A stretch of DNA of 64,000 nucleotides from Desulfuromonadales bacterium. GTDB lineage: Bacteria; Desulfobacterota; JAENJC01. This document shows positions 35,717 to 56,157 of the stretch, in pieces (within the stretch, counting starts at the first letter, position 1; each line of letters begins with the position of its first letter). A program made the position numbers and the translations under genes. Under the pieces are notes generated by a model. That model was not told the origin of the DNA. It worked only from the letters and a program-made list of their open reading frames with translations, and did no database searches. The stretch is taken from contig CAKKSC010000009.1 of NCBI GenBank assembly GCA_919902985.1, positions 11,871-75,870 of the forward strand, read 5' to 3'.

Positions 35717-35779
35717 AAACAATTCAGCCTTCCAGGGAAAGGTGGTGAATGGGATGGTCTCTTTTATCAGGGGTCCGTG

Positions 35780-36733: not shown

Positions 36734-37825
36734 ATGAAAAATATACTATTTACGGCCTTTATCGGCCTTATGCTTTTAGCGGCACCTGCCCATGCCATGC
36801 ATCTCTCTGAGGGGATACTGCCTATGAAGTGGGCTGTTATTTGGTATCTTGTGGCCCTGCCGTTTGTGGCGTATGGTGTTTATAAGGTTAAGGCCATTTC
36901 AAAGGAAGACTTATCCATCAAGCCTATGCTCGGTATGATGGGGGCAGCTGTATTTATCATCTCATGCATGCCCGTCCCTGTCCCCACAGCCGGAACATGC
37001 TCTCATCCTTGCGGGACAGGGATGGCGGCAATACTTATAGGCCCGGTACTGAGCACCTTTGTGGCATCCATCGCCCTGTTGATACAGGCCCTCTTCCTTG
37101 CCCACGGCGGGATAACTACTTGGGGAGCTGACATTGTTTCTATGGGTGTTATAGGCTCTTTCTCTGCCTACCTGACATTTAAGGGGTTGCGGAAGGTTGG
37201 TCTTGGTCTCGTACCGGCAGCCTTTGCCGCCGGGGTAATTTCTGACTGGGCCACATATGCCACTACCTCTTTTGAACTTGCCTCTGCATTGCAGGGTAAT
37301 GAACCGTTCATGAAGCTCTTTTCAACCATACTTATTGCATTCATACCGACCCAACTCCCGCTTGGGATACTTGAGGGGGCTATGACAGCCGGGATGGTGG
37401 CCTTTGTGATGAAGAGAAGGCCGGAGATACTGGAGAACCTGGGAGTTATCAAAATGCAAAGTGCAAAGTGCAAAATGCAAAGCGTCGTAGGAACTTTACT
37501 ACTGATTGCTGTGGCCATAGTTCCTTTGGCTGCATCCGCTGAAGAAGGGAAATGGACAGGTGTGGATGAATCGGTTGTTGAGAAGGTGGCCAAGGAGCAT
37601 GGCAGGGAGGCATGGGAGCCCTTTATAAATACAGACCAGGGAGATCTCCTTCTCTTTGTATTTCTTGTAGCTGGCGTCATAGGCGGGTTTGTGATGGGGT
37701 ATTACTGGCGAGGGATTTTTGATAAAAAAATCCCTCGCAATCCCCCTTTAGAGGGGACTGTCCCAGATTTACGGACGAAGCGCAGCGAAGTCGTAGAATC
37801 GGGACTGTCCCCGGATCGAGGCTAA
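36734..37825 (+). CDS. cbiMN: Cobalt ECF transporter CbiM fused to a CbiN-like module
   Basis: Signal peptide ending AHA directly before MHLSEGILP (the metal-binding mature N-terminus of CbiM/NikM). After a simple-repeat linker comes a CbiN-like TM-loop-TM (..EGKWTGVDES..EPFINTDQGDLLLFVFLVAGVIGGFVMGYYW). The tail is encoded by a family-A repeat. Confidence 0.85.
   Translation: MKNILFTAFIGLMLLAAPAHAMHLSEGILPMKWAVIWYLVALPFVAYGVYKVKAISKEDLSIKPMLGMMGAAVFIISCMPVPVPTAGTCSHPCGTGMAAILIGPVLSTFVASIALLIQALFLAHGGITTWGADIVSMGVIGSFSAYLTFKGLRKVGLGLVPAAFAAGVISDWATYATTSFELASALQGNEPFMKLFSTILIAFIPTQLPLGILEGAMTAGMVAFVMKRRPEILENLGVIKMQSAKCKMQSVVGTLLLIAVAIVPLAASAEEGKWTGVDESVVEKVAKEHGREAWEPFINTDQGDLLLFVFLVAGVIGGFVMGYYWRGIFDKKIPRNPPLEGTVPDLRTKRSEVVESGLSPDRG
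37753..37812 (+). repeat. Family-A double-palindrome element
   Basis: GGGGACTGTCCCAGATTTACGGAC-gaagcgcagcgaa-GTCGTAGAATCGGGACTGTCCCC. It encodes the last ~24 aa of CbiMN. Confidence 0.9.
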
Positions 37826-37826
37826 T

Positions 37827-38441
37827 ATGTTTACCGGAACCTTTTCAGATGTATACGCTAAACGCGACAACTGGCTTACGAGGATGGATGCTAGAATTAA
37901 ACTGGCCTTTGCTGTAGCCCTCCTATTCCTGAATCTGTTCGGAGGCGCTGTTGTCTCTTTATTCATCTTTGCAGTCGCAATTTCGACCTTGCTTTATCTT
38001 CGTATTCCGACAAAAACCCTTTTAATCAGGCTTTTAGAGCCTTTAGGTGTTGCAGGGGTGGTAATCCTTGTGAAGCTCTATTTTATAGGTTGGTCCGGTC
38101 TTCCAGAAGGGTTGATGATAGCATCCAGGATACTTGGGGCAGTTTCCTTAATATTACTCTTAAGCATGACCACCCCAGTTGATGCCCTGTTAAAGGCCCT
38201 TTCATGGTTTTGGGTCCCCAGGACATGGACAGATGTTGCCCTCCTGACTTATCGCTACATATTTGTCCTCCTTGAGGATGCCTATGTAGTCTACTCTGCC
38301 CAACGGATAAGACTCGGGTATCTGGGGATAGGTCGCTCCTTCCAGTCCTTTGGAATCTTGGCAGGAGCCATAGTCATAAGAGCGTATGATCAGGCCATGG
38401 CAACCTCCCAGGCCATGAGGCTCAGGGGATACGTAGGATAA
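37827..38441 (+). CDS. cbiQ: ECF transporter T component CbiQ
   Basis: 204-aa membrane protein: ..LTRMDARIKLAFAV.. N-terminus and ..A.RIRLGY.. coupling-helix region. The ATG lies 1 nt after the cbiMN stop. Confidence 0.85.
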   Translation: MFTGTFSDVYAKRDNWLTRMDARIKLAFAVALLFLNLFGGAVVSLFIFAVAISTLLYLRIPTKTLLIRLLEPLGVAGVVILVKLYFIGWSGLPEGLMIASRILGAVSLILLLSMTTPVDALLKALSWFWVPRTWTDVALLTYRYIFVLLEDAYVVYSAQRIRLGYLGIGRSFQSFGILAGAIVIRAYDQAMATSQAMRLRGYVG

Positions 38442-38444
38442 GAT

Positions 38445-38514
38445 AACTCCCCCCAGCCCCCTCTTAAGTTAAGAGGGGATTTATGCCCTGCGGGTATGCC
38501 GAAGGCGGGGGCGT
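38445..38514. repeat. Family-B hairpin element
   Basis: AACTCCCCCCAGCCCCCTCTTAAGTTAAGAGGGG...GCCGAAGGCGGGGGCGTT, in the cbiQ/cbiO spacer. Confidence 0.8.
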
Positions 38515-38515
38515 T

Positions 38516-39382
38516 ATGAATAAAGGATTAACGATGAGCCTGATCGAAGCAAAGAATATGTCTTTCACCTACCCCGACGGGAGCAAGGCGCTGCAGGATG
38601 TAAACCTTAAGGTTGAAAAAGGGGAGTTTGTCGGCCTTCTGGCCTCCAATGGTTCAGGGAAGACTACCCTTCTTAGATGCCTGAACAATCTTATCAAGCC
38701 CCAGACCGGTGAAGTTTCAATTGACGGGAAAGGTATTGCCGGTCTTCCTCAAAAAATACTTTTCCAGCGGATCGGGATGGTCTTTCAGAACCCAAATGAC
38801 CAGCTCTTTGCCTCAACCGTTGCAGAAGATGTTGCCTTTGGCCCGTCTAACATGGGCCTGTCAAAGGATGAAGTTAAGAGCAGTGTTGATGAGGCATTGA
38901 AGGCTGTGGGTATGGATGACCTTGGGAAGAAATCCATCCACAACCTCTCATTCGGACAGCAGAAGAGGGTATGCATCGCAGGGGCCCTGGCCATGCATCC
39001 TGAAGTCCTGTTGCTGGATGAGCCCACAGCTGGTCTTGATCCTATGGGCGAACACAAGATAATGGAGCTTTTGCAGAAGTTAAACAACGAAAGGGGCCTT
39101 ACCATAGTCATGGCGACCCATATGGTCGATATGGTACCCCTATTCATCGACAGGATATATATACTTAGCCGCGGAAAGGTCCTGAGGGAAGGAACGCCTG
39201 AGAAGGTCTTTTCAGACCCTGAGATGATAAAGGATGCAAAGCTGAGGCTCCCGATGATAGCAGAACTTATCGAACTTATGAGGCAGGAAGACGGGATATA
39301 TTTTGATAGAACACCATTGACCATTGGAGAGGCGAGACGGGAGCTGGTGAAGATGATAACGTTGAGGGAGTTAAAGAAATAA
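38516..39382 (+). CDS. cbiO: ECF transporter ATPase CbiO
   Basis: Walker A ASNGSGKTT, Q-loop, signature LSFGQQKRV, Walker B LLLDEP. Start chosen at ATG 38516, downstream of the repeat. Confidence 0.92.
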   Translation: MNKGLTMSLIEAKNMSFTYPDGSKALQDVNLKVEKGEFVGLLASNGSGKTTLLRCLNNLIKPQTGEVSIDGKGIAGLPQKILFQRIGMVFQNPNDQLFASTVAEDVAFGPSNMGLSKDEVKSSVDEALKAVGMDDLGKKSIHNLSFGQQKRVCIAGALAMHPEVLLLDEPTAGLDPMGEHKIMELLQKLNNERGLTIVMATHMVDMVPLFIDRIYILSRGKVLREGTPEKVFSDPEMIKDAKLRLPMIAELIELMRQEDGIYFDRTPLTIGEARRELVKMITLRELKK

Positions 39383-39384
39383 TA

Positions 39385-39412
39385 GTAGGGGCGTATTGCC
39401 ATACGCCCCTAC
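39385..39412. repeat. REP single hairpin (GTAGGGGCGTATTGC.ATACGCCCCTAC)
   Basis: Perfect 13-bp stem. Identical-type copies lie at 47459-47486 (inside cobQ) and 60445-60472. Confidence 0.85.
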
Positions 39413-39425
39413 ATAATAAAATTCT

Positions 39426-40670
39426 ATGTCACCAATAAGACCATTACGTCACGGCTATACCACCGGTTCCTGCGCGACTGCTGCCGCTAAGGCTGCCACA
39501 CTGGCCTTTTTACGGCAGGAAAGCGTGAAAGAGGTAGAGATAACCCTTCCAAAAGGTGAGATGGTTTTATTTAAGGTGCATTCATGCACTTTTAACAAGG
39601 AATCTTCCAGATGTTCTGTTATAAAGGATGGGGGAGATGATCCTGATGTGACGAATGGTGAAGAAATAGTGGCCGAGGTTTTTATCTCGGCGAATCAGGA
39701 GATAGCTCAAACTCCCCCCAACCCCCTCTTTACTAAAGAGGGGGTGCCAAAGGCGGGGGAGTTGTCTGTCGTCGAATCAGGACTCTCTCCGGTCGGGAAA
39801 AAAGCCTTCGAGTTCAGTGTTCATAATTCACAGGTCATTGTTTACGGTGGCAGAGGAGTTGGAGTTATTACAAAACCTGGGCTGGCCCTGCCTGTTGGTG
39901 AACCTGCCATTAACCCCGTTCCAAGAAAGATGATACAACAGGCGGTTGAAGAGGCGATTAGCGGTATGCAATACGCCCCTACAAATGTCATGGTTATCAT
40001 CTCCGTCCCTGATGGCGAGATGATTGCCAAGGGCACACTCAACAAACGCCTTGGGATAATGGGCGGGATCTCTATACTTGGGACAACCGGTATTGTAAAG
40101 CCGATATCCACCAAGGCCTGGGCTGACACCATAAGCGTTGCCCTGGATGTTGCCAAGGCTGCCGGACTTGAAGAGGTTGTATTGACCACGGGTCGGACCA
40201 GCGAGAAAGTCGCGATGGAGAGGTTAAAACTCCCGCCGGAGGCTTATATCCAGATGGGTGACCATGTTGGCTATTCCCTCAGAGAGTGCGTAAAAAAACG
40301 GTTCAAGATGGTCACCATTGCCGGACAATTTGGGAAGTTTACCAAGATAGCATCAGGAGAGTTTGAGACAAACGTCAGGGACTCAACTCTGGAGCTTAAG
40401 ACGCTGTCCGATATTATCCTTCAATCATTATCATCCCATCAGATTGATCCTACAAGGGCTGAAAAAGTGGCTCAGCTGGTAAAGAGCGCAAACACGGCCC
40501 GTCAGGCCTATTTCATCATAAGAGATGAAGGGATGGAGGAGATCATAGAGGCCGTGTGCATGAAGGTTTGTGAAAATTCAGTGAACTTTATCAAGGCAGA
40601 TACCCTTGAGTCCATAAATGTTGACTGCATATTGGTCGGATACGAAGGGGAGATAGTCTTTGCGATCTAA
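39426..40670 (+). CDS. cbiD: Cobalt-precorrin-5B (C1)-methyltransferase CbiD
   Basis: LRHGYTTGSCATAAAKAA.. N-terminus, ..DGGDDPDVTNG.., ..INPVP..MI.., ..GGISILGTTGIV.P.S... Carries repeat-derived inserts at about 39709-39790. Confidence 0.9.
   Translation: MSPIRPLRHGYTTGSCATAAAKAATLAFLRQESVKEVEITLPKGEMVLFKVHSCTFNKESSRCSVIKDGGDDPDVTNGEEIVAEVFISANQEIAQTPPNPLFTKEGVPKAGELSVVESGLSPVGKKAFEFSVHNSQVIVYGGRGVGVITKPGLALPVGEPAINPVPRKMIQQAVEEAISGMQYAPTNVMVIISVPDGEMIAKGTLNKRLGIMGGISILGTTGIVKPISTKAWADTISVALDVAKAAGLEEVVLTTGRTSEKVAMERLKLPPEAYIQMGDHVGYSLRECVKKRFKMVTIAGQFGKFTKIASGEFETNVRDSTLELKTLSDIILQSLSSHQIDPTRAEKVAQLVKSANTARQAYFIIRDEGMEEIIEAVCMKVCENSVNFIKADTLESINVDCILVGYEGEIVFAI
39709..39762. repeat. Family-B hairpin element inside cbiD
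   Basis: AACTCCCCCCAACCCCCTCTTTACTAAAGAGGGGGTGCCAAAGGCGGGGGAGTT, translated as TPPNPLFTKEGVPKAGEL. Confidence 0.9.
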
Positions 40671-42021
40671 TATCCACATAATAGGGGTCGGTGTCGAGGG
40701 CCGTGAAAGTCTTTCTCAAAAGGCCCTTAAAGTTCTTGAATCTGCCGGTCTTCTGATAGGCGGAGAGCGACATCTTGATGAGTTCCCTGAATTCAAGGGT
40801 GAACGGTTTGTCCTGAAGGCGAATTTGAAGGAGATGCTTGAGGTTATAATAAGTTCCGGGGACAGTCCCGATTCTACAACTCCCCCCAACCCCCTCTTTA
40901 GTAAAGAGGGGGTGCCAATAGGCGGGAGAGTTGTCGTCCTTGCCTCCGGCGATCCAGGCCTCTTCGGCATTGCCGATTACCTGATAAGGAACCTTGGGCA
41001 AGATGCAGTTGAGATAACACCAAATGTCAGCGCCATGCAGTGGGCCTTTGCAAAGGCAAAAGTAAGCTGGAACGATGCACGGATTGTCAGCAGCCACGGA
41101 CGAGGGATGGACAAGATTTTAGAAGCTGCAGGAGATGCAGAAAAGATTGGAATATTCACAAGCAACGGGGATGAGCCTTCTGAGATTGCAGAACTACTCA
41201 TTGATAATGGATTGAACAGTTTTACTGCATACATATGTGAAGACCTGGGTATGGAGACTGAAAAAGTCCTGGAGATGCAGCTTTCGGACGTATCAGGTAA
41301 GTCATTTGCTGCGTTGAATGTGATGGTACTTGTAAGGCAGGGGTCAGGGGGCAGGGGTCAGGGAGCAGAAGAAAATAAAAAAATCATCCCTCATCCCTCA
41401 TCCCTCATCCCTATTCTCGGTCTTCCCGACTCCGAATTCGCCCATTCCAAAGGCCTCATAACCAAGGAGGAGGTTCGGGCCGTCAGCCTTGCAAAGCTGA
41501 GAATGAGGAATGACAGCATTGTCTGGGATATCGGAGCCGGTTCCGGCTCTGTGGGTATCGAGGCGGCAAGGCTTTGCAGGGATGGAAAGGTCTTTGCCAT
41601 AGAAAAGGAACCGGAGAGGGTAGCTCATATCTACGAGAATATAAAGAAGTTTGGCATTGCAAACATGATCGTTCTGGAAGGAAAAGCGCCGGAAGGTCTT
41701 GACGGTTTATCAGACCCTGACGCTGTCTTTATCGGGGGAAGCGGAGGAAATCTCTCTGATATCCTTGATGTTGTCAAAGGGAGGCTACGGCCTTCAGGTC
41801 GGATAGTCATAAACGCCATAACTCTTGAGACCCTTCATGAGGCCACGACTGGTCTGAAAGATAGAGGGTTTGATGTAGATGTTGTAAGCCTGAACATTGC
41901 AAGAAGCAAGGACCTGATAGGGATGAAGATGTTCGAGGCGGAGAATCCGGTATTTATAATAATAGGCGAAAGGAGTAAGGGGACTGTCCCAGATTTACGG
42001 ACGAGCGCAGCGAAGTCGTAG
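40660..42021 (+). CDS. cbiET: Cobalt-precorrin-7 (C5)-methyltransferase / cobalt-precorrin-6B (C15)-methyltransferase (decarboxylating), CbiE-CbiT fusion
   Basis: CbiE half: IHIIGVGVEG.., VVVLASGDPGLFG. CbiT half: ..ITKEEVRAVSLAKL......WDIGAGSGSV.IEAA... Repeat inserts lie at 40858-40932 and 41339-41411. The stop codon lies inside a family-A element. Confidence 0.9.
   Translation: MRSNIHIIGVGVEGRESLSQKALKVLESAGLLIGGERHLDEFPEFKGERFVLKANLKEMLEVIISSGDSPDSTTPPNPLFSKEGVPIGGRVVVLASGDPGLFGIADYLIRNLGQDAVEITPNVSAMQWAFAKAKVSWNDARIVSSHGRGMDKILEAAGDAEKIGIFTSNGDEPSEIAELLIDNGLNSFTAYICEDLGMETEKVLEMQLSDVSGKSFAALNVMVLVRQGSGGRGQGAEENKKIIPHPSSLIPILGLPDSEFAHSKGLITKEEVRAVSLAKLRMRNDSIVWDIGAGSGSVGIEAARLCRDGKVFAIEKEPERVAHIYENIKKFGIANMIVLEGKAPEGLDGLSDPDAVFIGGSGGNLSDILDVVKGRLRPSGRIVINAITLETLHEATTGLKDRGFDVDVVSLNIARSKDLIGMKMFEAENPVFIIIGERSKGTVPDLRTSAAKS
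40858..40932. repeat. Composite insert: inverted family-A half plus a family-B hairpin inside cbiET
   Basis: GGGGACAGTCCCGATTCTACAAC then AACTCCCCCCAACCCCCTCTTTAGTAAAGAGGGGGTGCCAATAGGCGGGAGAGTT, translated as GDSPDSTTPPNPLFSKEGVPIGGRV. Confidence 0.9.
41384..41411. repeat. Heptanucleotide tandem repeat (TCATCCC)x4
   Basis: Four perfect units in the CbiE/CbiT linker, preceded by the G-rich GGGGTCAGGGGGCAGGGGTCAGGG (41339-41363). Confidence 0.9.
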
Positions 42022-42037
42022 AATCGGGGCTGTCCCC
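41979..42037 (+). repeat. Family-A double-palindrome element
   Basis: GGGGACTGTCCCAGATTTACGGAC-gagcgcagcgaa-GTCGTAGAATCGGGGCTGTCCCC. The TAG of the right arm is the cbiET stop codon. Confidence 0.9.
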
Positions 42038-42045
42038 AATATAGC

Positions 42046-42760: not shown

Positions 42761-42771
<11 letters not shown>
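42046..42771 (+). CDS. cbiL: Cobalt-precorrin-2 (C20)-methyltransferase CbiL
   Basis: KLYGIGVGPGDPELLTLKA.. and ..LGDPMFYSTF.. tetrapyrrole methylase motifs. GTG start. Confidence 0.88.
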
Positions 42772-43546
<775 letters not shown>

Positions 43547-43625
43547 ATATATACGGTGAGATTATAGGCGTTATTATAATTTTAGATTTTCTCTGCGTCT
43601 CTGCGCCTCCGCGGTGGATAATTAT

Positions 43626-44747
43626 ATGAAGACCGCCATAATCACCCTTACTAAGGGCAGCGTGGAGCTTGGTCTCGGACTTCATGAGAGGTTGATGGAT
43701 TCCGAGCTTTTTGTCCCTGAGAAGCACAGGGATATGGCCGACGGAAAGGGTATCACCTTTACCGAGATAACGGATGTTGCGGAGAAGGCCTTTTCCGAAT
43801 ATGACGGACTGGTCTTCATCATGGCGACAGGAATTGTTGTAAGGGTCATTGCTCCATTTATAAAAGGGAAGGACATGGACCCTGCTGTCGTTGTCATGGA
43901 TGAAGCCGGAAAGTTTGCTATATCTCTTTTGTCAGGGCATTTGGGCGGGGCCAATGAACTGGCCGGAGAGGTAGCCGGACTTACAGGAGCTACACCTGTC
44001 ATTACGACTGCGACGGATGTTTGCAATAAGCCGTGTGCAGAGGGTATCGCCAGGGAACTGGATTGCGAGATAGAGAACGTTGCAAGGATAAAGAAGGTCA
44101 ACAGCGCGTTTCTGCATGACGAGAAGGTGGCTATAAACCTCCCAGCAGGAGAGAGGGAGGCCATTGCCGGTTGTGGTAACTTTATTTTTTTTGGCACTTT
44201 GCAGGGGCTTCTTGCTTCAGAATGCACTGCCCGCATCGCTGTAACCAACAGGCTGACGCCTGATATTCTTGGGAACTGTCTTGTCTTCAGGCCGATGAAT
44301 CTTGTTGTCGGTATCGGATGCAACAGGAACACATCCGCAGAGGAGATAGAAGATGTGGCATTTAAGGTTTTGAAGGATGCCGGGCTTTCTCAAATGAGTA
44401 TACGGAATCTGGCTACTATAGATGTTAAAAGGGATGAGGACGGGATCCTAAAATTTGCTGAGAAGTATGGCCTTACGATAGATTTTTTTAATAAAGAAGA
44501 GCTGGAAGAAACAAAGCTGGTGACTCCCCCTTCACTGCATGTCATAGATGCAGTGGGAGTCGGCGGCGTGTGCGAGCCTGCTGCCATGCTGAGTGCAAAG
44601 GTTTCAACGCTATTGGTAAACAAAGTAAAGTCTGGGAATGTAACGGTGGCAGTGGCAGAAATGGAGGGGACTGTCCCAGATTTACGGACGGAGCAAAGCG
44701 GAGTCGTAGAATCGGGACTGTCCCCGAAAAAGGGAGGCTATTTTTGA
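43626..44747 (+). CDS. cbiG: Cobalt-precorrin-5A hydrolase CbiG
   Basis: N-terminal ..AIITLTKGS.., central ..ISLLSGHLGGAN.LA.. and C-terminal ..VVGIGCNRNTS.EEI... The tail is encoded by a family-A element. Confidence 0.88.
   Translation: MKTAIITLTKGSVELGLGLHERLMDSELFVPEKHRDMADGKGITFTEITDVAEKAFSEYDGLVFIMATGIVVRVIAPFIKGKDMDPAVVVMDEAGKFAISLLSGHLGGANELAGEVAGLTGATPVITTATDVCNKPCAEGIARELDCEIENVARIKKVNSAFLHDEKVAINLPAGEREAIAGCGNFIFFGTLQGLLASECTARIAVTNRLTPDILGNCLVFRPMNLVVGIGCNRNTSAEEIEDVAFKVLKDAGLSQMSIRNLATIDVKRDEDGILKFAEKYGLTIDFFNKEELEETKLVTPPSLHVIDAVGVGGVCEPAAMLSAKVSTLLVNKVKSGNVTVAVAEMEGTVPDLRTEQSGVVESGLSPKKGGYF
44666..44725 (+). repeat. Family-A double-palindrome element
   Basis: GGGGACTGTCCCAGATTTACGGAC-ggagcaaagcgga-GTCGTAGAATCGGGACTGTCCCC, translated as the CbiG C-terminus GTVPDLRTEQSGVVESGLSP. 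Confidence 0.9.
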
Positions 44748-45550
44748 AAGGTAAAATATTTGTTGTCGGCATCGGCCCCGGAAGTGCGGAGCATTTGACA
44801 CAGAGGGCCAGGACCGCACTGTATGAGGCCGACGTAATTGTTGGATATAAAACTTATGTAAACCTGATAAAGTGCATTGTGGGCGGCAAGGAGATTGTAT
44901 CTACCGGCATGACTGAGGAAGTGGAGCGCTGCAAGGCCGCCATTGAATTGGCAGAGAATGGTAAGAAGGTCGCCGTCATATCCAGTGGTGATGCGGGGAT
45001 ATATGGGATGGCGGGACTGATATATGAATTAGTGGCCAATAAGGGGACTGTCCCAGATTTACGGACATCGCCCCGCTCCGTCGTAGAATCGGGACTGTCC
45101 CCGACTTTAACCGTTCACGATATTGAGATCATCCCAGGCGTCTCAGCCCTTAATGCAGCCGCGGCAGTCCTTGGCGCGCCGTTAATGCATGACTTCGCTG
45201 CAATTTCTCTATCTGATCTCCTTACGCCCTGGGAAGTCATTCAGAAAAGGATTGAGTCTGCTGCAATGGCCGATTTTGTTATCTGCATATATAATCCAAA
45301 GTCATCCGGGAGGGTCGAACAGATAAGGATTGCACGGGACTTAATCTCAAGACACAGGAAGCCTGATACCCCTGTGGGGATAGTTAAAAATGCCATGAGG
45401 GATGGACAGAAGGTTTTGCTTACTACCCTTTCTGATATGCTTAACCATGATATAGACATGCTTACAACGATTATAATCGGCAATTCCACGACGTACATGG
45501 TCGACAGTGTGATGGTGACGCCGAGGGGATATAAGATAGGCGAAGAGTGA
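44744..45550 (+). CDS. cbiH: Cobalt-precorrin-3B (C17)-methyltransferase CbiH
   Basis: KIFVVGIGPGS.EHLT.RA.., ..VISSGDAGIYGMAGL.., ..PGVSA.NAAAA.LGAPL.HDF... The TTG start overlaps the cbiG stop. Contains a 60-nt in-frame family-A insert. Confidence 0.88.
   Translation: MKGKIFVVGIGPGSAEHLTQRARTALYEADVIVGYKTYVNLIKCIVGGKEIVSTGMTEEVERCKAAIELAENGKKVAVISSGDAGIYGMAGLIYELVANKGTVPDLRTSPRSVVESGLSPTLTVHDIEIIPGVSALNAAAAVLGAPLMHDFAAISLSDLLTPWEVIQKRIESAAMADFVICIYNPKSSGRVEQIRIARDLISRHRKPDTPVGIVKNAMRDGQKVLLTTLSDMLNHDIDMLTTIIIGNSTTYMVDSVMVTPRGYKIGEE
45043..45102 (+). repeat. Family-A double-palindrome element inside cbiH
   Basis: GGGGACTGTCCCAGATTTACGGAC-atcgccccgctcc-GTCGTAGAATCGGGACTGTCCCC; exactly 60 nt, translated as GTVPDLRTSPRSVVESGLSP. 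Confidence 0.9.
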
Positions 45551-45576
45551 GAATCAACGGTTAGGAGTTGTTATTG

Positions 45577-46734
45577 ATGAAGGTCGCAGTTATAGGTGGA
45601 GGCCCGGCTGGCGCTATGGCGGCGATGACGCTGGCGAAGGCAGGGGTTGAGACATATTTGATAGAGAAAGACCTCAATGGCGACAAGCCTTGCGGAGGAG
45701 GTATTCCGTGTGGCGCCCTAAGGGCGTTTGACATCCCTGATTACCTCTTTGAGAGAAAGGTTTCTAAGGTAGGGATCATTGCACCATCAGGGGATGAGGT
45801 TGTCGCAGACCTTGGAGACGGATATGTCGGGATGGTTGATAGGGCCAGGTTCGATCCATATCTCAGGGAGAGGGCCGTTCAGGCCGGGGCAAGACTTATA
45901 GAAAGGGTTTTTACCGGTTTCTCCAAGAAAGAATCAACTCCCCCTCGCCCCCTCTTTATCAAAGAGGAGGAAATTAAGGTCATTTTCAAGCAGGGAGAGA
46001 AAGAGGACTCCATCGGAGTGGATGCCGTTATTGCGGCTGATGGGGTCAATTCAACCGTTGCAAAACAGGTTGGGGCCGAAAGGCCGCAGGTATACCTCAC
46101 GGTACAAGAGAAGGTACAGTTGACTGGAGAGGCAAAAAAATTATATGAGGACCGCTGCGAATTCTGGTATGGGGCAGATATTTCTCCGAATTTCTACGGT
46201 TGGGTCTTTCCCAAGAAAGAGTTCGCCACCATTGGAACAGGGACATATCTTGATGACGGTAAGAATCTGAAGGGGTATTTGGGAAGGTTCAAGGAAAGAC
46301 TTGGGGCAAGGATAAGCGATGCAAAGGTGCTGAAGAGGCAGTCTTATGTCCTGCCTATGGGGCCGATAAAGAAAAAGGTCTATGGGAATATCCTTCTGGT
46401 GGGAGATGCCGCAGGGACGGTCATGCCAGTGTCCGGAGAGGGCATTTATTACAGCATCATGAGCGGGAATTTGGCCGCGGAGGCTGTGATAAAAGGGGAT
46501 TTTGCTTCTTATGAAAGGGAGTGGAAAAGGGTTTACGGTTCACAGTTCAGGCTGATGTCACTTCTTCGCCAATGGCTCTATAGAGATGACAAGTGGCGGG
46601 AGAGGCTCGTCAGGATACATGAAGACAAGGATGTCCAAGAAAGAACTCTTGCCCTGTGGCTGGACAAAGAAAGGAAATATCCAATATACAGCATATACTG
46701 GAAGATATTAAGGAGTCTGCTGAGGCATGGCTAA
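45577..46734 (+). CDS. FAD-dependent oxidoreductase, geranylgeranyl reductase family
   Basis: MKVAVIGGGPAGAMAA..LAKAG.E..LIEK......KPCGGGIP (the GGR-family KPCGGG signature), ..VIAADGVNS.VA.. and ..LVGDAAG.V.P.SGEGIYY... AGGAG RBS. Its stop overlaps the cobQ start. Confidence 0.8.
   Translation: MKVAVIGGGPAGAMAAMTLAKAGVETYLIEKDLNGDKPCGGGIPCGALRAFDIPDYLFERKVSKVGIIAPSGDEVVADLGDGYVGMVDRARFDPYLRERAVQAGARLIERVFTGFSKKESTPPRPLFIKEEEIKVIFKQGEKEDSIGVDAVIAADGVNSTVAKQVGAERPQVYLTVQEKVQLTGEAKKLYEDRCEFWYGADISPNFYGWVFPKKEFATIGTGTYLDDGKNLKGYLGRFKERLGARISDAKVLKRQSYVLPMGPIKKKVYGNILLVGDAAGTVMPVSGEGIYYSIMSGNLAAEAVIKGDFASYEREWKRVYGSQFRLMSLLRQWLYRDDKWRERLVRIHEDKDVQERTLALWLDKERKYPIYSIYWKILRSLLRHG
45936..45970. repeat. 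Family-B hairpin (partial) inside the GGR-like gene
   Basis: AACTCCCCCTCGCCCCCTCTTTATCAAAGAGGAGG, translated as STPPRPLFIKEEE. Confidence 0.75.
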
Positions 46735-48292
46735 ATCGATAATGGTTCAGGGTACCGGCTCTCATGTGGGGAAGAGCATTATAACTGCCGGGCTCTGCAG
46801 GATATTTAAGAATATGGGATATAAAGTCGCCCCGTTCAAGGCCCAGAATATGGCGCTTAATTCAGCCGTGGCTAAGGAAGGCGGGGAGATAGGCCGCGCC
46901 CAGGCCATACAGGCGGAGGCCTGCGGGGTTGAGCCGTCGATCCATATGAATCCGGTTCTTCTTAAGCCAAACAGTGATATGGGTTCCCAGGTGATAATCC
47001 ACGGAAAGGTTATCGGGAATATGAAGGCAAGGGAGTACTATGCCTACAAAAAGAAGGCTTGGGAGGCTGTCTGCGAAAGCTACAGTAAACTTTCAGGAGA
47101 ATTTGATTTGATTGTAATTGAAGGGGCAGGTTCACCTGCGGAGGTGAACCTTAAGGAGAACGACATCGTAAATATGAAGGTGGCGGAGATGGCCGGGGCA
47201 AAGGTGCTTCTGGTCTCTGACATAGACAGAGGCGGTGTTTTTGCCGCGCTGATTGGTACTATGGAGTTACTGACGCAATCCGAAAGGAAGATGGTCTGCG
47301 GTTTTATCATTAACAAGTTTAGAGGTGACAAAACCCTGCTTGAGCCGGGGCTTGATTTTATCGAGAAAAGGACAGGGGTGCCGGTTCTTGGTGTTGTTCC
47401 GTATCTTAGGGATATGGTGATTGGGGAAGAGGACAGTGTTGGACTTGATAATAGGAAGGTAGGGGCGTATTGCGATACGCCCCTACAAAACCGGCCCATA
47501 AAAATCGGCATCATCCAGCTCCCGCATATCTCAAACTACACCGATTTTGATTCACTTCAAAGAGAACCGGATGTCGAGCTAAGGTATATACAACGGCCTG
47601 AAGAGGTTGATGGACTTGATCTGGTGATAATCCCCGGCAGCAAGAACACCATTGACGACCTTCTTTTCCTCAAAAAGACAGGCCTGGCAGAGGCTATCGA
47701 TAAGCATTACAGAGATGGCAGGCACCTTGTGGGCATCTGCGGAGGGTACCAGATCCTTGGCCTTAAGGTCTCCGACCCTCATGGAGTTGAGACAGATGGA
47801 GTTTCTGAGGAAGGCCTGGGGCTTCTCCCGATAGAGACGGTTTTATTGAAAGATAAAGTCACCGCAAATATTGAGGCGGTCGGCAGTCAGCAGTCAGCGG
47901 CCAGCTTGAAAGGATACGAGATTCATATGGGCGAATCCATGATAGTTGGGGATGCGAAACCTTTGTTTGTTATACGAAAGAGAAACAGCGGCGCTGTTGA
48001 GATGCCCGACGGTGCTATAACAAAAGACGGCAGATGCTGGGGGACATACATCCACGGGGTATTTGACAATGATGGGTTCAGAAGGGATTTCCTTAATGGC
48101 ATAAGAAAAGACAAGGGGTTGGATGCTGTAAAGGGATTGATTAATAAGGATGACGGTTTTGATCAACTGGCCGCTGTTTTAATAGAAAATCTCGATGTAG
48201 AACGTATCTTAAAACTTACAGAAGACTGGAGAGTACGCCTTGGATCAGAAGCAGGAACAAGTCAAACAATCGAATCTGGATATAGCGCTTAA
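46727..48292 (+). CDS. cobQ: Cobyric acid synthase CobQ/CbiP
   Basis: IMVQGTGSHVGKS.. P-loop, ..APFKAQNMALNS.., C-terminal GATase ..ICGGYQ.LG... and ..GYEIHMG... Contains REP (47459-86) and simple-repeat (47876-905) inserts. Confidence 0.93.
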   Translation: MAKSIMVQGTGSHVGKSIITAGLCRIFKNMGYKVAPFKAQNMALNSAVAKEGGEIGRAQAIQAEACGVEPSIHMNPVLLKPNSDMGSQVIIHGKVIGNMKAREYYAYKKKAWEAVCESYSKLSGEFDLIVIEGAGSPAEVNLKENDIVNMKVAEMAGAKVLLVSDIDRGGVFAALIGTMELLTQSERKMVCGFIINKFRGDKTLLEPGLDFIEKRTGVPVLGVVPYLRDMVIGEEDSVGLDNRKVGAYCDTPLQNRPIKIGIIQLPHISNYTDFDSLQREPDVELRYIQRPEEVDGLDLVIIPGSKNTIDDLLFLKKTGLAEAIDKHYRDGRHLVGICGGYQILGLKVSDPHGVETDGVSEEGLGLLPIETVLLKDKVTANIEAVGSQQSAASLKGYEIHMGESMIVGDAKPLFVIRKRNSGAVEMPDGAITKDGRCWGTYIHGVFDNDGFRRDFLNGIRKDKGLDAVKGLINKDDGFDQLAAVLIENLDVERILKLTEDWRVRLGSEAGTSQTIESGYSA

Positions 48293-48878: not shown

Positions 48879-48937
48879 GTGATGAGTGATGAGCAATGAG
48901 CAATGAGTTTTCAGTCTTCAGCCCTCAGCCTTCAGCC
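48873..48937. repeat. Simple-sequence tract (ATGAGTG/ATGAGCA then TTCAGCC-type units)
   Basis: CAATGAGTGATGAGTGATGAGCAATGAGCAATGAG..TTCAGTCTTCAGCCCTCAGCCTTCAGCC, spanning the DUF3786 stop and the cbiB start. Confidence 0.85.
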
Positions 48938-49891: not shown

Positions 49892-50955
49892 ACCACATCC
49901 ACGGCGGGAATATAAGAGAGGTTGCGAGAAGGTACGGTCTGAGACCGGAAGACATTATAGACTTCAGCGCCAGCATAAATCCTCTGGGAATGTCTGAAAG
50001 GGCCAGGAAGGCTATTATTGAAGGGGTTGACTCGATTCTCCACTACCCTGAGCAGTTTGCAGAAGCCCTCACCTCAGAAGCGGCCAGGTTTTACGGCGTT
50101 CCGAATTACTGTTTGATTGCAGGTAACGGCTCTACTGAGCTTGTTTATCTTGTTCCCAGGGCATTCAAGCCCAAAAAGGCCCTTATTGTCAACCCTACCT
50201 TCAGCGAATATAAAAACGCCCTTAAGATCGCCGGATGCGGCATAGATTATTTTCTCATGCTTGAGGAAGACGGGTTCAGGCTGAGAGTTGATCCTCTGAT
50301 GCGTGTTTTAAAAGGAAGATACGATATCCTGTATATCTGCAATCCAGGAAACCCAACGGGGGCATTAATCCCAAAAAGCGATATCCTTGAAATAGTTGAT
50401 ACGGCCTTGAATCATGATACGTTATGCATAGTGGATGAGGCTTTTATCGATTTTGCCGAGATGGAGTCAGTCAAAAGAGAAGCGGTGGAGAGGTCTAATC
50501 TTATAGTTCTCAGGTCTCTGACCAAGTTCTTCGGAATCCCTGGCCTTAGGATAGGCTTTGCGGTAGGAAATAAGGAGAGGATCGGGGAGATGACAGTTTA
50601 CAAGGAACCTTGGAGCGTCAATGCTCTTGGGTCTATTGCGGGCATTGAAGGGTTAGGTGATACTGAGTACATCGAAGAGAGCAGAAGATACGTGGAAAAG
50701 GAGCGGGATCATCTTTTTTCTGCATTGAAGGGGATTCAAGGGCTTACGCCCTTCCCTTCCTCTGCGAACTACATCCTTCTTAAGATTAATAAGGATGGGG
50801 TGGATGCTGATACTCTTGCGGCAACCCTTGCAAAGGAAGGGATACTTATCAGATCATGTTCCTCCTTTGATGGGCTTGGAAATAGATTTTTCAGGATTGC
50901 GGTCAGAAACAGAGAAGAGAATGAAAGGCTGGTTAAACTCCTGACAGCGTCATAA
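49882..50955 (+). CDS. cobD: L-threonine-O-3-phosphate decarboxylase
   Basis: HGGNIREVARRYGL..EDIIDFSASINPLG.. and the class I/II aminotransferase fold (..NPGNPTG.., ..SLTKFFGIPGLRIG..). Confidence 0.88.
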   Translation: MRINHIHGGNIREVARRYGLRPEDIIDFSASINPLGMSERARKAIIEGVDSILHYPEQFAEALTSEAARFYGVPNYCLIAGNGSTELVYLVPRAFKPKKALIVNPTFSEYKNALKIAGCGIDYFLMLEEDGFRLRVDPLMRVLKGRYDILYICNPGNPTGALIPKSDILEIVDTALNHDTLCIVDEAFIDFAEMESVKREAVERSNLIVLRSLTKFFGIPGLRIGFAVGNKERIGEMTVYKEPWSVNALGSIAGIEGLGDTEYIEESRRYVEKERDHLFSALKGIQGLTPFPSSANYILLKINKDGVDADTLAATLAKEGILIRSCSSFDGLGNRFFRIAVRNREENERLVKLLTAS

Positions 50956-51003
50956 ATTTGTGTTGACAAAAGAGAGCCTTTATACAAAAATAGCGTCTAA
51001 ATG

Positions 51004-51190
51004 TAGTCAGGTGGTTCCAAATTACTGGAACCTAAATAGGGAATACCGTGGCCTGCTAAAAGCAGGGAATCGGAAGCTGCCCCCGCAACTGTAAACGGAG
51101 ACGAAACCCACACCAGCCACTATCCTTAAACAGGATGGGAAGGCGTGGGGATTAGGACGACCCGTAAGCCAGGAGACCTGCCTGATTCTG
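51004..51190 (+). promoter_or_regulatory. Cobalt/cobalamin riboswitch 3 (internal to the locus)
   Basis: TAGGGAA, CCCCGCAACTGTAAACGG, GCCACT, TGGGAAGGC, B12 box AGCCAGGAGACCTGCC. P1 is GTCAGG..CCTGAT. Confidence 0.85.
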
Positions 51191-51256
51191 AGTTCTCGCC
51201 GCCTTTCGTGGGGAAGGGTTTGGGAGATATCCCTTCATTGGATATTTGCCTTTTAA

Positions 51257-51290
51257 CCCCCAACCTCTCGATAGGTTGGGGGTTTTTTAT
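51257..51290 (+). terminator. Intrinsic terminator (expression platform of riboswitch 3)
   Basis: Stem CCCCCAACCT (51257-66) / AGGTTGGGGG (51273-82) followed by T6. Confidence 0.85.
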
Positions 51291-51324
51291 TTTAAGGGGA
51301 CTGTCCCAGATATTCGGGGAAAAG

Positions 51325-51855
51325 ATGAAAAAGGGATTGATACATATTTACACAGGCGAAGGGAAAGGAAAGACCACTGCGTCCATAGGTCTTGCCATAA
51401 GGGCTGCCGGTCAGGGGCTGAATGTCCTTCTTGTCCAGTTCTTCAAGTCGGACAAGGATTCTTCCGGGGAGCTTAATATCATCAGAGAGCGGATCCCTGA
51501 GATAGAGATGATAAGGATGAATGAAAGGCATCCCCTTTTCAAAAAGGAGGAGAGCCCCGGAAAGATAAAGGACTCAGTGGAGGAGACCTTCAGGGAGGCA
51601 GTGGATAAAGCTCTTCACGGTGATTATGATTTACTGATAATGGATGAGATACACAGCGCGGTGGCCGGGAACTGGCTCTCGGTGGATGAGGTCATAGGTT
51701 TCCTGAAGCATAAACCAGAGAAGCTTGAAGTGGTCATGACAGGACGCAAGGCCCATGAACGGTTGATTGAAATGGCCGATTATGTCACAGAGATGAATAT
51801 GCAGAGACACCCCTATGAAAAAGGGGTAACGGCGAGGAAGGGGATTGAATACTAA
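51325..51855 (+). CDS. cobO: Cob(I)yrinic acid a,c-diamide adenosyltransferase
   Basis: GLIHIYTGEGKGKTTASIGLAIRAAGQGL.VLLVQFFK.. Start taken at ATG 51325, downstream of the riboswitch terminator. Confidence 0.9.
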   Translation: MKKGLIHIYTGEGKGKTTASIGLAIRAAGQGLNVLLVQFFKSDKDSSGELNIIRERIPEIEMIRMNERHPLFKKEESPGKIKDSVEETFREAVDKALHGDYDLLIMDEIHSAVAGNWLSVDEVIGFLKHKPEKLEVVMTGRKAHERLIEMADYVTEMNMQRHPYEKGVTARKGIEY

Positions 51856-52615
51856 AAGACAGGGGTCAGGGGTCAGAGAGGGGACTGTCCCAGATTTACG
51901 GACGGAGTGCAACGAAGTCGTAGAATCGGGACCGTCCCCGGCTAAGCTTATCTTCATCACAGGCGGCGCCCGTTCTGGAAAGAGCGCATTTGCCTTGAAG
52001 ATGGCAAATTCGATTACCCCCCCTCAATCCCCCCCTTGGCAAGGGGGGGACGAAAGGGGGGGTAGAAAATGTTATCTTGCAACAGCGCAGGCCCTTGACT
52101 CTGAGATGGGGGAGAGGATAGCAAAGCACAAGGCGGAGCGTGGAAACGACTGGGAGTGTATAGAAGAGCCTTTACAGGTTGCTGAGAAGATAGAAGAGGT
52201 CAAAGATAGATACGATGTAATCATGTTTGACTGCCTGACATTATGGGTGTCGAACCTGATGCATGCCCGATCTATTCCCCCGCCCCTTGAGGGAGAGGCC
52301 TGTCCTGAGAGCCGTTCATTCCTTCGACAAGCTCAGGACGAACGGCATCGAAGGGGTCAGGGCCTCGAAGAGGTTCTCGCACCCGGAGGGTGTGAGGGGG
52401 GGCTTAGGGAAGAATTTGCATCGCTTATTTGTACATGTAAGGGTTCGGGTTCAACTGTCATAGTTGTTTCCAACGAAGTCGGCTTAGGGATTGTCCCTGA
52501 CAATCAACTTGCAAGAGAGTTTAGAGACATAGCCGGGACGGCAAATCAGCTATTCGCAAAGGCAGCCGATGAGGCGTATTTTGTAGTTTCAGGGATACCG
52601 ATGAGATTAAAATAA
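51845..52615 (+). CDS. cobU: Adenosylcobinamide kinase / adenosylcobinamide-phosphate guanylyltransferase, with three repeat-derived segments
   Basis: LIFITGGARSGKSAFA (P-loop), ..YLATAQALDSEM.ERI..H...R, ..FDCLTLWVSN.., ..VVSNEVGLGIVP.N.LAREFRD..G..NQ. The only in-frame start is TTG 51845, so the family-A copy is translated. Confidence 0.85.
   Translation: MNTKRQGSGVREGTVPDLRTECNEVVESGPSPAKLIFITGGARSGKSAFALKMANSITPPQSPPWQGGDERGGRKCYLATAQALDSEMGERIAKHKAERGNDWECIEEPLQVAEKIEEVKDRYDVIMFDCLTLWVSNLMHARSIPPPLEGEACPESRSFLRQAQDERHRRGQGLEEVLAPGGCEGGLREEFASLICTCKGSGSTVIVVSNEVGLGIVPDNQLAREFRDIAGTANQLFAKAADEAYFVVSGIPMRLK
51880..51939 (+). repeat. Family-A double-palindrome element
   Basis: GGGGACTGTCCCAGATTTACGGAC-ggagtgcaacgaa-GTCGTAGAATCGGGACCGTCCCC. 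A left-arm-only copy lies at 51296-51320. Confidence 0.9.
52263..52400. repeat. Composite repeat insert inside cobU (contains a TTCGACAAGCTCAGGACGAACGG-type module)
   Basis: It interrupts the CobU alignment between ..WVSNLMHA and ..EFASLI... It is translated as RSIPPPLEGEACPESRSFLRQAQDERHRRGQGLEEVLAPGGCEGGL. Confidence 0.75.
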
Positions 52616-56154: not shown

Positions 56155-56157
56155 TGT

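Follow-up and report, generated by a model that had tools for sequence, protein, structure and literature searches.

A short hairpin repeat, probably mobile and of the REPIN or Rickettsia palindromic element type, read in frame within cobalamin genes of a Desulfuromonadales bacterium

A stretch of 64,000 nt from a Desulfuromonadales bacterium (assembly GCA_919902985.1, contig CAKKSC010000009.1, positions 11,871-75,870 of the forward strand; hereafter, the window) contains a dispersed imperfect hairpin of about 60 nt, which we explain as a small, selfish, non-autonomous mobile repeat of the REPIN or Rickettsia palindromic element type, probably moved by a HUH transposase; we put the probability of this explanation at about 0.65. 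The element does not represent a novel type of system and resembles the Rickettsia palindromic elements. In the B12 genes, it is mostly read as harmless loops or tails of 20 amino acids, and related genomes differ by both gains and losses of copies.

The window holds six full and three partial copies (Table 1), far above chance: a scan with GGGACTGTCCC, allowing at most one mismatch, returned 27 matches against 1.3 expected, and none of 100 shuffled sequences reached 27. All six full copies, the first of which starts at 14647/8, lie on the + strand, and each folds into a single long imperfect hairpin (-27 to -32 kcal/mol; z-scores of -2.6 to -4.9). A previous sequence-only reading had reported this set of full and partial copies and interpreted it as a hairpin repeat of the REP/MITE type whose structure is maintained and which, in the manner of the Rickettsia palindromic elements, is inserted in frame; the present analysis bears out this core interpretation. 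That reading also placed five copies in a single cobalamin operon; five of the six do fall within 14.2 kb, but the cobalamin genes form two adjacent riboswitch-led units, and the clustering itself is statistically marginal (P = 0.044 by simulation).

Table 1. Copies of the element and associated features in the window
Feature	Position	Strand	Setting and reading
Full copy, most diverged of the six	14647..14706	+	Antisense, in frame within hemY
hemY	14041-15582	-	Hosts copy 14647..14706, translated as GDSPDSTASLSSARKPVTVP
RAYT gene	23791-24387		Flanked by a different REP, of the GTAGGGGC type
Cobalamin riboswitches	35143; 35538; 50992		Lead the two cobalamin units
Full 60-nt copy	37753..37812	+	CbiM(N) C-terminal tail GTVPDLRTKRSEVVESGLSP; 14 nt upstream of cbiQ start
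D2-family repeat	39710-39765		Abuts decayed arm 39766-39790
Decayed right arm	39766..39790	+	Inside CbiD; read as VVESGLSP
Inverted right arm	40857..40880	-	In CbiE part of CbiET; read as GDSPDSTT
D2 repeat	40878-40913		Follows inverted arm 40857-40880
59-nt copy with 1-nt loop deletion	41979..42037	+	Last residues and stop codon of CbiET (TAG 42019-42021)
Full copy	44666..44725	+	CbiG C-terminal tail; just upstream of cbiH RBS and TTG start at 44744
Full copy	45043..45102	+	Within CbiH, TP_methylase domain; read as GTVPDLRTSPRSVVESGLSP
Left arm only	51296..51320	+	Between terminator-like hairpin of the third cobalamin riboswitch and cobO start codon
GGGGTCA heptamer repeats	51856-51879		Directly before copy 51880..51939
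Full copy	51880..51939	+	Translated as part of the CobU N-terminal extension

The contributions to cobalamin proteins that had been proposed, namely, the C-terminal tails of CbiM(N) and CbiG, the stop codon of CbiET, a block inside CbiH and the N-terminus of CobU, are all found in the window. For CobU, there is no ATG, GTG or TTG between the copy and the P-loop, and the sole start codon, TTG 51845, lies upstream of the copy, which therefore forms an N-terminal extension. In the hemY copy, compensatory changes of the inner stem replace GGAC/GTC with GGGCC/GGCC, and the loop of the CbiH copy matches the usual loop best when taken as its reverse complement. The decayed arm in CbiD departs from the consensus arm at four positions, all of them synonymous third-position changes in the VVESGLSP frame. 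Both this arm and the inverted arm in CbiET abut members of a second repeat family, D2 (CCCCCTCTTTACTAAAGAGGGGG), and these two partial copies are composite or decayed elements.

At least 119 stretches contain the exact left arm; among the matches listed, these come from 36 species-level genomes. Genomes with the same arms are labelled in their GenBank records as Nitrospirota, Thermodesulfobacteriota, Omnitrophota, Desantisbacteria and Poribacteria, with GC contents of 0.39-0.58; the genomes are MAGs of many uncultured anaerobic bacteria from groundwater and sediment. A Mu-like phage also has copies within its portal and terminase genes, and phages of this kind would be a plausible route between lineages. 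Where tyrosine recombinase genes have a copy, it lies within their own linker, not beside an array.

The basal stem of the element consists of two conserved arms, GGGGACTGTCCCAGATTTACGG and CGTAGAATCGGGACTGTCCCC, its ends are the inverted repeats GGGGACTGTCCC / GGGACTGTCCCC, and its irregularities (a T·T mismatch, a bulged A and a T·G pair) are fixed. The arms are near-invariant, the invariance of the left one being partly by construction because sampling relied on the exact left-arm 21-mer, and the apex is free to vary, such that the length of the listed copies ranges from 50 to 91 nt. The apical stem-loop differs by lineage and often holds other small palindromes, and its stem displays compensatory changes over 79 distinct listed copies (pair 24:42 is A-U in 47, G-C in 27 and C-G in 3). 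The palindrome within each arm, GGGAC-T-GTCCC, amounts to a stem of 5 bp around a single central nucleotide; folding requires the complete 60-nt unit. The hairpin of the top strand is the more stable one in 85 of the 93 distinct listed copies, owing to G·U or G·T pairs. The right arm includes GTAG (CGTAGAATC); for the left arm, the complement has GTAA. An Rfam search of the window recovered only three cobalamin riboswitches above the gathering threshold and no match to the element at E <= 10.

Comparison of orthologous sites, which had been suggested along with the initial description, identifies the HemY and CbiH blocks as lineage-specific. Against the Bacillus subtilis protoporphyrinogen oxidase (PDB 3I6D), HemY contains an exact 20-residue insert. 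In the CbiH alignment, the insert is common only to the window and relatives with 93% and 89% identity; other close relatives have different repeat-derived peptides in the same loop, and the block is missing from distant orthologues and PDB homologues. In the AlphaFold model, the CbiH insert is coil with pLDDT of 43-50, compared to a mean of 83 for the fold. Gain and loss are apparent in one relative (L066), which lacks the copy at the CbiET C-terminus, bears a full antisense copy at the site of the window's half copy 40857-40880, and contains copies at sites where the window has none. The CbiM copy of this relative is 59/60 identical to that of the window within a gene that is 75% identical. 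Generally, at orthologous sites, arms are 96-100% identical and flanking DNA 75-94%; across the mqnC genes of five species, no variation is seen in 45 of 47 arm columns compared to 276 of 427 flank columns. The arms at orthologous sites are conserved beyond neutral expectation, a near-identity that is probably upheld by the proposed moving machinery or else through gene conversion among the copies. At the same site in two of the closest relatives, one (L088) has a 60-nt form and the other (L026) a 72-nt form, that is, an exchange of the apex.

One of the closest parallels is with the Rickettsia palindromic elements (RPEs), reportedly described by Ogata et al. in 2000. Like RPEs, which are discussed in PMC3733652, the element is a short palindromic repeat that lies in frame in housekeeping genes, is translated at permissive sites as an extra loop or tail, occurs as lineage-specific insertions and has no linked transposase. 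However, the sequences are apparently unrelated, the element is shorter (50-91 nt versus roughly 100-150 nt), its apex is modular, and about a third of its copies are intergenic. By its hosts and the lack of an Rfam match, it is set apart from RPE-1 to RPE-8. RPE hosts are obligate intracellular Rickettsiales, in contrast to the free-living groundwater and sediment anaerobes of several labelled phyla, and the phage, that carry the element.

REPINs, normally extragenic, vertically inherited, lineage-specific and mobilized by RAYTs (PMC3116915, PMC3337134, PMC3733652), are similar in that a pair of inverted arms folds into one long hairpin with single arms as remnants, the ends are conserved around a variable middle with compensatory changes, target duplication is absent, GTAG occurs in the right arm, and RAYT genes are present in the host. 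The REPIN arrangement, in which two inverted units build a larger hairpin around a variable spacer, is found in the element. REP dimers likewise fold into larger stem-loops, with spacers that contain small stem-loops, and their G·T pairs have been read as a sign of transcription (PMC3733652); intragenic GTAG/CGTC-tagged REP dimers encode 20-30 residues (Di Nocera et al. 2013; PMC3733652). Unlike a REP unit, a GTAG/GTGG-tagged imperfect palindrome of 20-40 nt that folds alone, the arm of the element cannot fold by itself; furthermore, the element is often intragenic, its arms are the same across distant genomes and phage, and no RAYT flanked by it was found in the window, in 80 loci of the window RAYT's clade or in the surroundings of about 160 copies.

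Terminal inverted repeats of some TIRYT genes have GGGGWSAS in common (PMC3733652). The right terminus of the element, read on the bottom strand as GGGGACAG, fits this motif, whereas the left terminus, GGGGACTG, is one base off; a match of only eight degenerate bases can be taken as no more than a lead. With palindrome-associated elements of the IS200/IS605 family and with attC sites, the element shares a hairpin whose conserved extrahelical or mismatched bases make the two strands distinct, the absence of target duplication and a biased orientation. Three of the features of IS200/IS605-type single-strand transposition occur in weak form among the listed copies (A at -1 in 87%, the more stable top strand in 85/93, and the same orientation in 29 versus 5 neighbouring copies). 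IS200/IS605 elements end in two dissimilar subterminal hairpins and have a defined target of 4-5 nt, as opposed to the one hairpin and bare A|G junction seen here. Integron attC sites are defined by a GTTRRRY core, R''/L''...L'/R' boxes and cassette arrays next to intI; the arms of the element have no GTTRRRY core, and its copies are dispersed in housekeeping genes with neither array nor intI.

Under the mobile-repeat explanation, a folded single strand of the element would be moved in trans by a HUH tyrosine (Y1) transposase acting like the RAYT, TIRYT or IS200/IS605 enzymes. The element inserts without target duplication, usually between A and G. In 83 independent listed flanks, A is found at -1 in 72 and G at +1 in 61, and target-site duplications of 2-6 nt occur at chance frequency only. 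The search for the mobilizing enzyme detected no transposase recurring beside the element in 124 element-bearing loci, no Y1 gene adjoining any of the approximately 160 copies and no TIRYT gene bounded by its arms in the element-bearing loci. The RAYT encoded in the window was rejected as the partner given that it is associated with its own GTAGGGGC-type REPs and that the 80 metagenome loci of its clade contain no copy; its presence indicates that REP/RAYT systems do run in these genomes.

Family-wide, listed copies are divided about equally among the insides of ORFs, gene ends and the spaces between genes. The view that copies are always read through as protein applies to the window but not to the family: 42 of 132 listed copies lie inside long ORFs against 73 expected at random, and 44 of 132 are in a short or intergenic context against 14.5 expected. 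Among the host ORFs, 76 have Pfam matches, to 86 families of housekeeping proteins. In its common forms of 60 and 54 nt, the element lengthens a protein by 20 or 18 residues and keeps the reading frame; it is open in two of three frames on each strand, and in-ORF listed copies use the four open frames 22, 7, 10 and 1 times, mostly those that yield the hydrophilic GTVPDLRT..VVESGLSP and GDSPDSTT..RKSGTVP. Persistence is mainly at low-harm places, that is, intergenic regions, gene ends, surface loops and inter-domain linkers.

Listed copies lie on the purine-rich coding strand in 76 cases versus 16, a bias that fits replication, transcription or RNA-level selection alike and cannot separate them. 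One rival explanation regards the element as, above all, a cis-acting RNA (or DNA) signal of the host, such as an mRNA-stabilizing or processing hairpin at cistron borders, and mobility merely the way it got there. Such a role has been demonstrated for E. coli REPs. It would account for a sense-strand bias that is greatest at gene borders (33 versus 4), followed by intergenic copies (23 versus 7), for the greater stability of the sense-strand hairpin, for the exact placement of several window copies at cistron junctions and for the retention of arms while flanking synonymous sites diverge. However, ribosomes would unwind the copies inside ORFs, about a third of the total, antisense copies exist, as in hemY, no T run follows the window copies, Rfam has no matching family, copies occur in phage structural genes, and presence at a given junction varies among relatives, such as L066, with the operon intact. 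We consider this explanation unlikely.

It is very unlikely that the element originated as a classical MITE, derived by deletion from a DDE-transposase IS and moving by cut-and-paste via terminal inverted repeats. The inverted-repeat ends, and a fragment of a DUF772 (IS5-type) transposase about 3 kb beyond the window on the same contig, are compatible with it. The MITE part of the original assignment is rejected because target-site duplications are at the chance level, and the asymmetric flanks, the conservation of stem mismatches and the bulge, and the lack of a full-length parent with such ends in about 840 kb of element-bearing loci also argue against it.

The sequence-only reading had offered a dimeric DNA-binding protein as an alternative reader of the paired GGGAC-T-GTCCC palindromes, the repeats then being operator sites of a regulon. 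These palindromes are nearly invariant and, having their central T on the same strand, are direct repeats as well as parts of a stem. Nevertheless, this is a poor fit and, in our estimation, highly improbable: the spacing of the sites varies with the length of the element, the intervening region changes by compensation, pointing to a hairpin, and the majority of copies lie within coding sequences, or at their ends, in unrelated genes and phage.

Nothing was found in favour of an ancestral origin of the 20-residue protein blocks or of copies produced by faulty assembly; both ideas are refuted by the CbiH and HemY comparisons and by the recurrence of the same copies in independent ENA, Logan and GenBank assemblies, in which short-read contigs break within the element, as expected of a true repeat.

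The motif GGGACTGTCCC, with at most one mismatch, has 27 matches in the window when both strands are counted, against 1.3 expected from dinucleotide shuffles, and none of 100 shuffles reached this number. Repeat finding and alignment recovered the six full copies and three single arms that had been described from sequence alone (see table). As that sequence-only reading anticipated, every full copy yields a single long, imperfect hairpin on folding (-27 to -32 kcal/mol, z -2.6 to -4.9); in the window, two of the three reading frames of the element are open on either strand. The suspicion of an assembly artefact fails: the window originates from a groundwater metagenome (Hainich H52), identical sequence is present in independent ENA and Logan assemblies, and three short-read contigs start within the element, which is how a true repeat behaves. 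Extension of the source contig by about 10 kb yielded no additional element copies, and the near-match GGGATTGTCCC at 52487 was rejected as a remnant, being native CobU sequence (GLGIVPDN). In the 45043 copy, the loop at 45067-45079 (ATCGCCCCGCTCC) agrees with the common loop at 9 of 13 positions as reverse complement versus 4 of 13 directly, and the apex of this copy appears to have flipped between unchanged arms.

Pfam assigns genes of the region to CbiM(N), CbiQ, CbiO, CbiD, CbiET, two further tetrapyrrole (TP) methylases, CbiG, CbiH, CobO and CobU; a HemY-type protoporphyrinogen oxidase is also encoded in the window. Inspection of the reading frames bore out the proposed protein-level placements: CbiM(N) and CbiG each owe their C-terminal tail to a copy, a 59-nt copy provides the CbiET stop codon (TAG, 42019-42021), another lies within the methylase domain of CbiH, and yet another makes up an N-terminal extension of CobU, for which TTG 51845 is the sole start because no ATG, GTG or TTG occurs from the element to the P-loop. 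The HemY copy is an antisense, in-frame insert that aligns with a gap of exactly 20 residues in the Bacillus subtilis protoporphyrinogen oxidase (PDB 3I6D). An AlphaFold model of CbiH has a mean pLDDT of 83; there the insert forms a coil (pLDDT 43-50) with a helix on one side and a strand on the other. The region is not the one operon it had been taken for; it comprises two adjacent units, each led by cobalamin riboswitches. The claimed concentration in cobalamin genes is statistically marginal: five of the six full copies do lie within 14.2 kb, at a simulation P of 0.044. The left-arm remnant at 51296 is located between the terminator-like hairpin of the third riboswitch and the cobO start. 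A separate perfect hairpin directly upstream of the 37753 copy is translated as well, in the CbiM(N) tail, and CobU contains another in-frame palindromic insert, which in part explains why this protein is about 50 residues longer than the Pfam CobU profile.

Coordinates of repeats and associated features (window numbering, except for the phage), and reading frames of element copies that lie inside ORFs
Feature	Positions	Strand or sense	Remark
Element, full copies (starts)	14647/8, 37753, 41979, 44666, 45043, 51880	+	six
Element, single arms	39766-39790; 40857-40880; 51296-51320		40857-40880 inverted
Element, Mu-like phage L128 (IMGVR_UViG_3300025013_000007)	985-1042, 2960-3011, 10086-10137		three copies
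Cobalamin riboswitches	35143-35324, 35538-35726		tandem, upstream of cbiM unit
Cobalamin riboswitch	50992-51199		upstream of cobO
RAYT gene	23791-24387	+	
Composite repeat GGGGCGGGTTTGAAACCC...GTAGGGGCGGCCC...	23664-23783, 24064-24165		~100 nt
D2 family (AACTCCCCCCAACCCCCTCTTTACTAAAGAGGGGGT)	24445-24527, 38445-38480, 39710-39765, 40878-40913, 45936-45971		
Tandem heptamers (AGTGCAA, GGGGTCA/GGGGCAG, GCGGTCA)	37450-37481, 41334-41374, 43459-43507, 47874-47910, 51856-51879		
Classical-looking GTAG-headed REP palindromes, e.g. GTAGGGGCGTATTGCGATACGCCCCTAC, GTAGGGGCAACCCTCTGTGGTTGCCCT	39385-39412, 47459-47486, 60446-60472; 11859-11917, 56148-56210		
Perfect hairpin GAGGGATTTTTGATAAAAAAATCCCTC	37703-37746		
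Palindromic CobU insert (CCCCCCTCAATCCCCCCCTTGGCAAGGGGGGGACGAAAGGGGGGG)	52015-52065		
Frame GTVPDLRT..VVESGLS		sense	22 copies
Frame GDSPDSTT..RKSGTVP		antisense	10 copies
Frame GDCPRFT..		sense	7 copies
Frame GTVPILRL..		antisense	1 copy

Gain and loss of the element can be followed in the orthologous cbi operon of a relative (L066, DNA identity 75-84%). The two operons have the CbiM tail copy in common; L066 lacks the CbiET C-terminal copy of the window, holds a complete antisense copy where the window has a half copy plus D2, a second repeat family, and carries the element in the CbiE/CbiT linker, which in the window is occupied by heptamer repeats. Among CbiH homologues, the element is present only in the window and in relatives at 93% and 89% identity; at 72-85% identity the same loop holds four other repeat-derived peptides, and in distant orthologues it is short. 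Orthologue alignment thus identifies the CbiH block as lineage-specific and absent from distant orthologues, in accord with the original proposal. The CbiH helix-strand loop is a hot spot for insertion of several repeat families. The peptides seen in this loop (window 45040-45110; proteins P0003-P0023, relatives at 72-93% identity) derive from the element, GQQSVVSQ heptamers, CRGGSVTRPGQGTALP, PLGEGWGEG and NAECGMW.

Beyond the window, we sampled a species-representative genome set with the exact left-arm 21-mer, which occurs in at least 119 stretches and, among the matches listed, in 36 genomes. The record labels of these carriers, among the matches listed, are Nitrospirota/Thermodesulfovibrionia, Thermodesulfobacteriota/'Deltaproteobacteria' including Smithellaceae, Ca. 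Omnitrophota, Ca. Desantisbacteria, Ca. Poribacteria and unclassified, and local GC content ranges from 0.39 to 0.58, again among the matches listed. Complete or nearly complete carrier genomes include OY970295.1 (3.59 Mb) and CAYVQZ01. A profile search of the fetched loci gave 167 matches, 140 of them full length (among the matches listed), and the right arm is nearly invariant although the sampling did not use it. Total length spans 50 to 91 nt (modes: 60, 54 and 50 nt), and the variation is in the apical part. The apices differ by lineage yet retain pairing (GGAC..GTC, GGGCAC-GAA-GTGCC, GGGCGC-TTT-GCGCC, GCTCCGAC..GTCGGAGC); at the apical pair 24:42, 79 distinct copies show 47 A-U, 27 G-C and 3 C-G combinations. 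The apex commonly holds other small palindromes, including D2 in other genomes (L008, L057 and L063), and in two genomes the element caps a longer, roughly 150-nt hairpin repeat. Four IMG/VR contigs contain copies, one of them a Mu-like phage (L128) with one copy past the Portal_Mu domain of the portal gene, one in the linker that joins the N- and C-domains of the terminase, and one upstream of the tail sheath gene. No match to the element was detected in Rfam, at the gathering threshold or at a permissive E-value, in curated plasmid and phage collections, or in the literature searched by sequence. Peptide queries of 33 residues against 1.84 billion representatives (3 matches) and of 40 residues, as a double peptide, against a 5.8-billion-protein set (7 candidates) were too short to be informative.

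Host ORFs of at least 150 residues number 76 and match 86 Pfam families of ordinary enzymes, among the matches listed, including MqnC/CofH, nitrogenase-like proteins, AcrB, TGT, AccA, QueA, LpxB and ResB. Location inside an ORF, which the sequence-only reading had found for every window copy, does not extend to the family as a rule. Among the matches listed, 42 of 132 copies lie inside long ORFs versus 73 expected at random positions, so that the element is rarer inside genes, though far from excluded; 24 are C-terminal, 22 N-terminal or upstream, and 44 in short ORFs or intergenic, versus 14.5 expected. Inside ORFs, hydrophilic frames prevail. Four positions set the decayed CbiD arm apart from the consensus, and each of these changes is synonymous in the VVESGLSP frame, which suggests that this peptide is translated and constrained. 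Selection for multiple-of-three lengths in ORFs can be dismissed, with such lengths in 74% of internal and 75% of intergenic copies; divisibility by three is a property of the master copies, independent of context.

Over 83 independent flanks, the base at -1 is A in 72 and that at +1 is G in 61, and target-site duplications are no more frequent than expected by chance. Of the copies, 76 are oriented along the purine-rich coding strand and 16 along the opposite strand (intergenic, 23 to 7; gene borders, 33 to 4; internal, 27 to 11), and the top strand forms the more stable hairpin in 85 of 93 distinct copies. Neighbouring copies have the same orientation in 29 cases and opposite orientations in 5. 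A link to replication is unsupported: the 83% coding-strand bias accounts for most of this co-orientation, and loci 20-45 kb apart on the same contig agree in only 4 of 6 cases. GC skew and AT skew of the window change sign jointly near 24 kb, at the point where the genes switch direction; the signal is one of purine loading on the coding strand, not of replication.

The arms are strongly conserved at orthologous sites. An MqnC insertion is orthologous in five species; of its 47 arm columns, 45 are invariant, versus 276 of 427 (65%) in the coding flanks, and pairwise identity is 96-100% in the arms versus 75-94% in the flanks; sampling bias in this comparison concerns the left arm only. Between the window and L066, the CbiM copies agree at 59 of 60 positions, the gene around them being 75% identical. 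At one and the same junction, the two closest MqnC relatives have a 60-nt and a 72-nt element with different apices, and the 72-nt form is present elsewhere in both genomes, a pattern better explained by conversion or re-insertion than by simple descent.

We would put at roughly one in five the probability of the following reading: that this is a cross-phylum, phage-carried hairpin element rather than a lineage-bound REPIN; that some active process keeps its arms (21-24 nt) constant at orthologous sites; that its mover is not a RAYT of the present clade, possibly a Y1 or other class new to repeats; and that it is one of a whole set of repeat families which, in uncultured bacteria of the subsurface, write short peptide loops into housekeeping enzymes at shared hot-spot loops and linkers. 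On this cross-phylum reading, the constancy of the arms (45/47 columns versus 65% in the flanks) would imply direct selection on each copy or continual conversion.

As for mechanism, the folded single strand of the element is probably moved by an HUH tyrosine transposase, as in REP/RAYT, TIRYT and IS200/IS605 systems. The lack of target duplication, asymmetric junctions, strand-distinguishing conserved mismatches and strand bias fit such single-strand movement. Clustering of all ORFs of 124 loci, a search for HUH/Y motifs, tblastn with the window RAYT (REP-associated tyrosine transposase) and an IS200 TnpA, and a RAYT profile run against all six-frame ORFs revealed no partner transposase next to the element; they recovered the window RAYT, a single IS200 TnpA that is unlinked, and nothing else, and in these searches of element loci no Y1 gene lay beside a copy. 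The window RAYT matches NCBIfam REP_Tyr_transpos at E = 5.6e-16 after removal of an in-frame repeat insertion, its homologues are annotated RayT, and it is flanked by GTAGGGGC-type REPs. Its clade was rejected as the mobiliser: neither the element nor GGGACNGTCCC occurs in 80 metagenome loci of this clade, 270 kb in all. An element-derived peptide tail was found in none of 120 RAYT homologues. The RAYT gene lies at the end of a DNA methylase-like ORF; a composite repeat is inserted in frame directly after the HUH motif and recurs directly upstream of the gene, so this transposase gene has been invaded by a repeat of its own kind. Some RAYT-like 'TIRYT' genes have TIRs with the common motif GGGGWSAS (PMC3733652), and the right terminus of the element, GGGGACAG on the bottom strand, fits this motif, which gives no more than a lead. 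In four genomes (L122, L042, L086 and L052), a tyrosine recombinase (Phage_int_SAM_4 + Phage_integrase) has the element in the linker that follows its N-terminal domain, and two of these genes have additional repeat-derived peptides (SPVIA...TKQS) adjoining it. No evidence pointed to these recombinases as the partner enzyme; the copy in their own inter-domain linker is another tolerated site.

In behaviour, the element resembles the Rickettsia palindromic elements and the intragenic REP dimers of Di Nocera et al. (PMC3733652), and in architecture, REPINs (PMC3116915). It departs from several defining traits of the REPIN-RAYT family: neither arm folds by itself, the loci searched showed no RAYT flanked by the element, many copies are intragenic, and it is not lineage-restricted, taking the genomes as labelled. 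Described by the sequence-only reading as a MITE/REP-type element, it fails the MITE test because there is no target-site duplication; we place it with palindromic selfish repeats tolerated in frame. What looks unusual are the arms common to distant genomes and phage, the modular apex, and the conservation of the arms at orthologous sites.

The element accounts for odd C-terminal tails, N-terminal extensions and internal blocks of 18-30 residues in many predicted proteins from metagenome genomes of Nitrospirota, Thermodesulfobacteriota and relatives, and explains short-read contig breaks at such sites. With it, the phenomenon of 'selfish DNA inside protein genes', described from Rickettsia, reaches subsurface bacteria that are free-living, as well as their phages. 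Certain loops, for instance the helix-strand loop of CbiH, the linker between CbiE and CbiT, and the MqnC site, have been invaded repeatedly by different repeat families, which maps naturally where these enzymes tolerate insertions. If the arms are maintained site by site, the element would be a good system for studying how a hairpin repeat stays identical across genomes of 39-58% GC.

Several other repeats share the window. D2 adjoins both half copies of the element, occurs in two copies downstream of the RAYT gene, and is also read in frame, as TPPNPLFTKEGV, in CbiD, CbiET and an FAD-dependent reductase (45568-46734). The tandem heptamers are translated in CbiM, the CbiE/CbiT linker and elsewhere, and runs of GGGTCAA/GGGTCAG frequently adjoin the left end of the element (window 51856; L072, L085 and L088 in other genomes). 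Some of the GTAG-headed REP palindromes overlap ORF ends.
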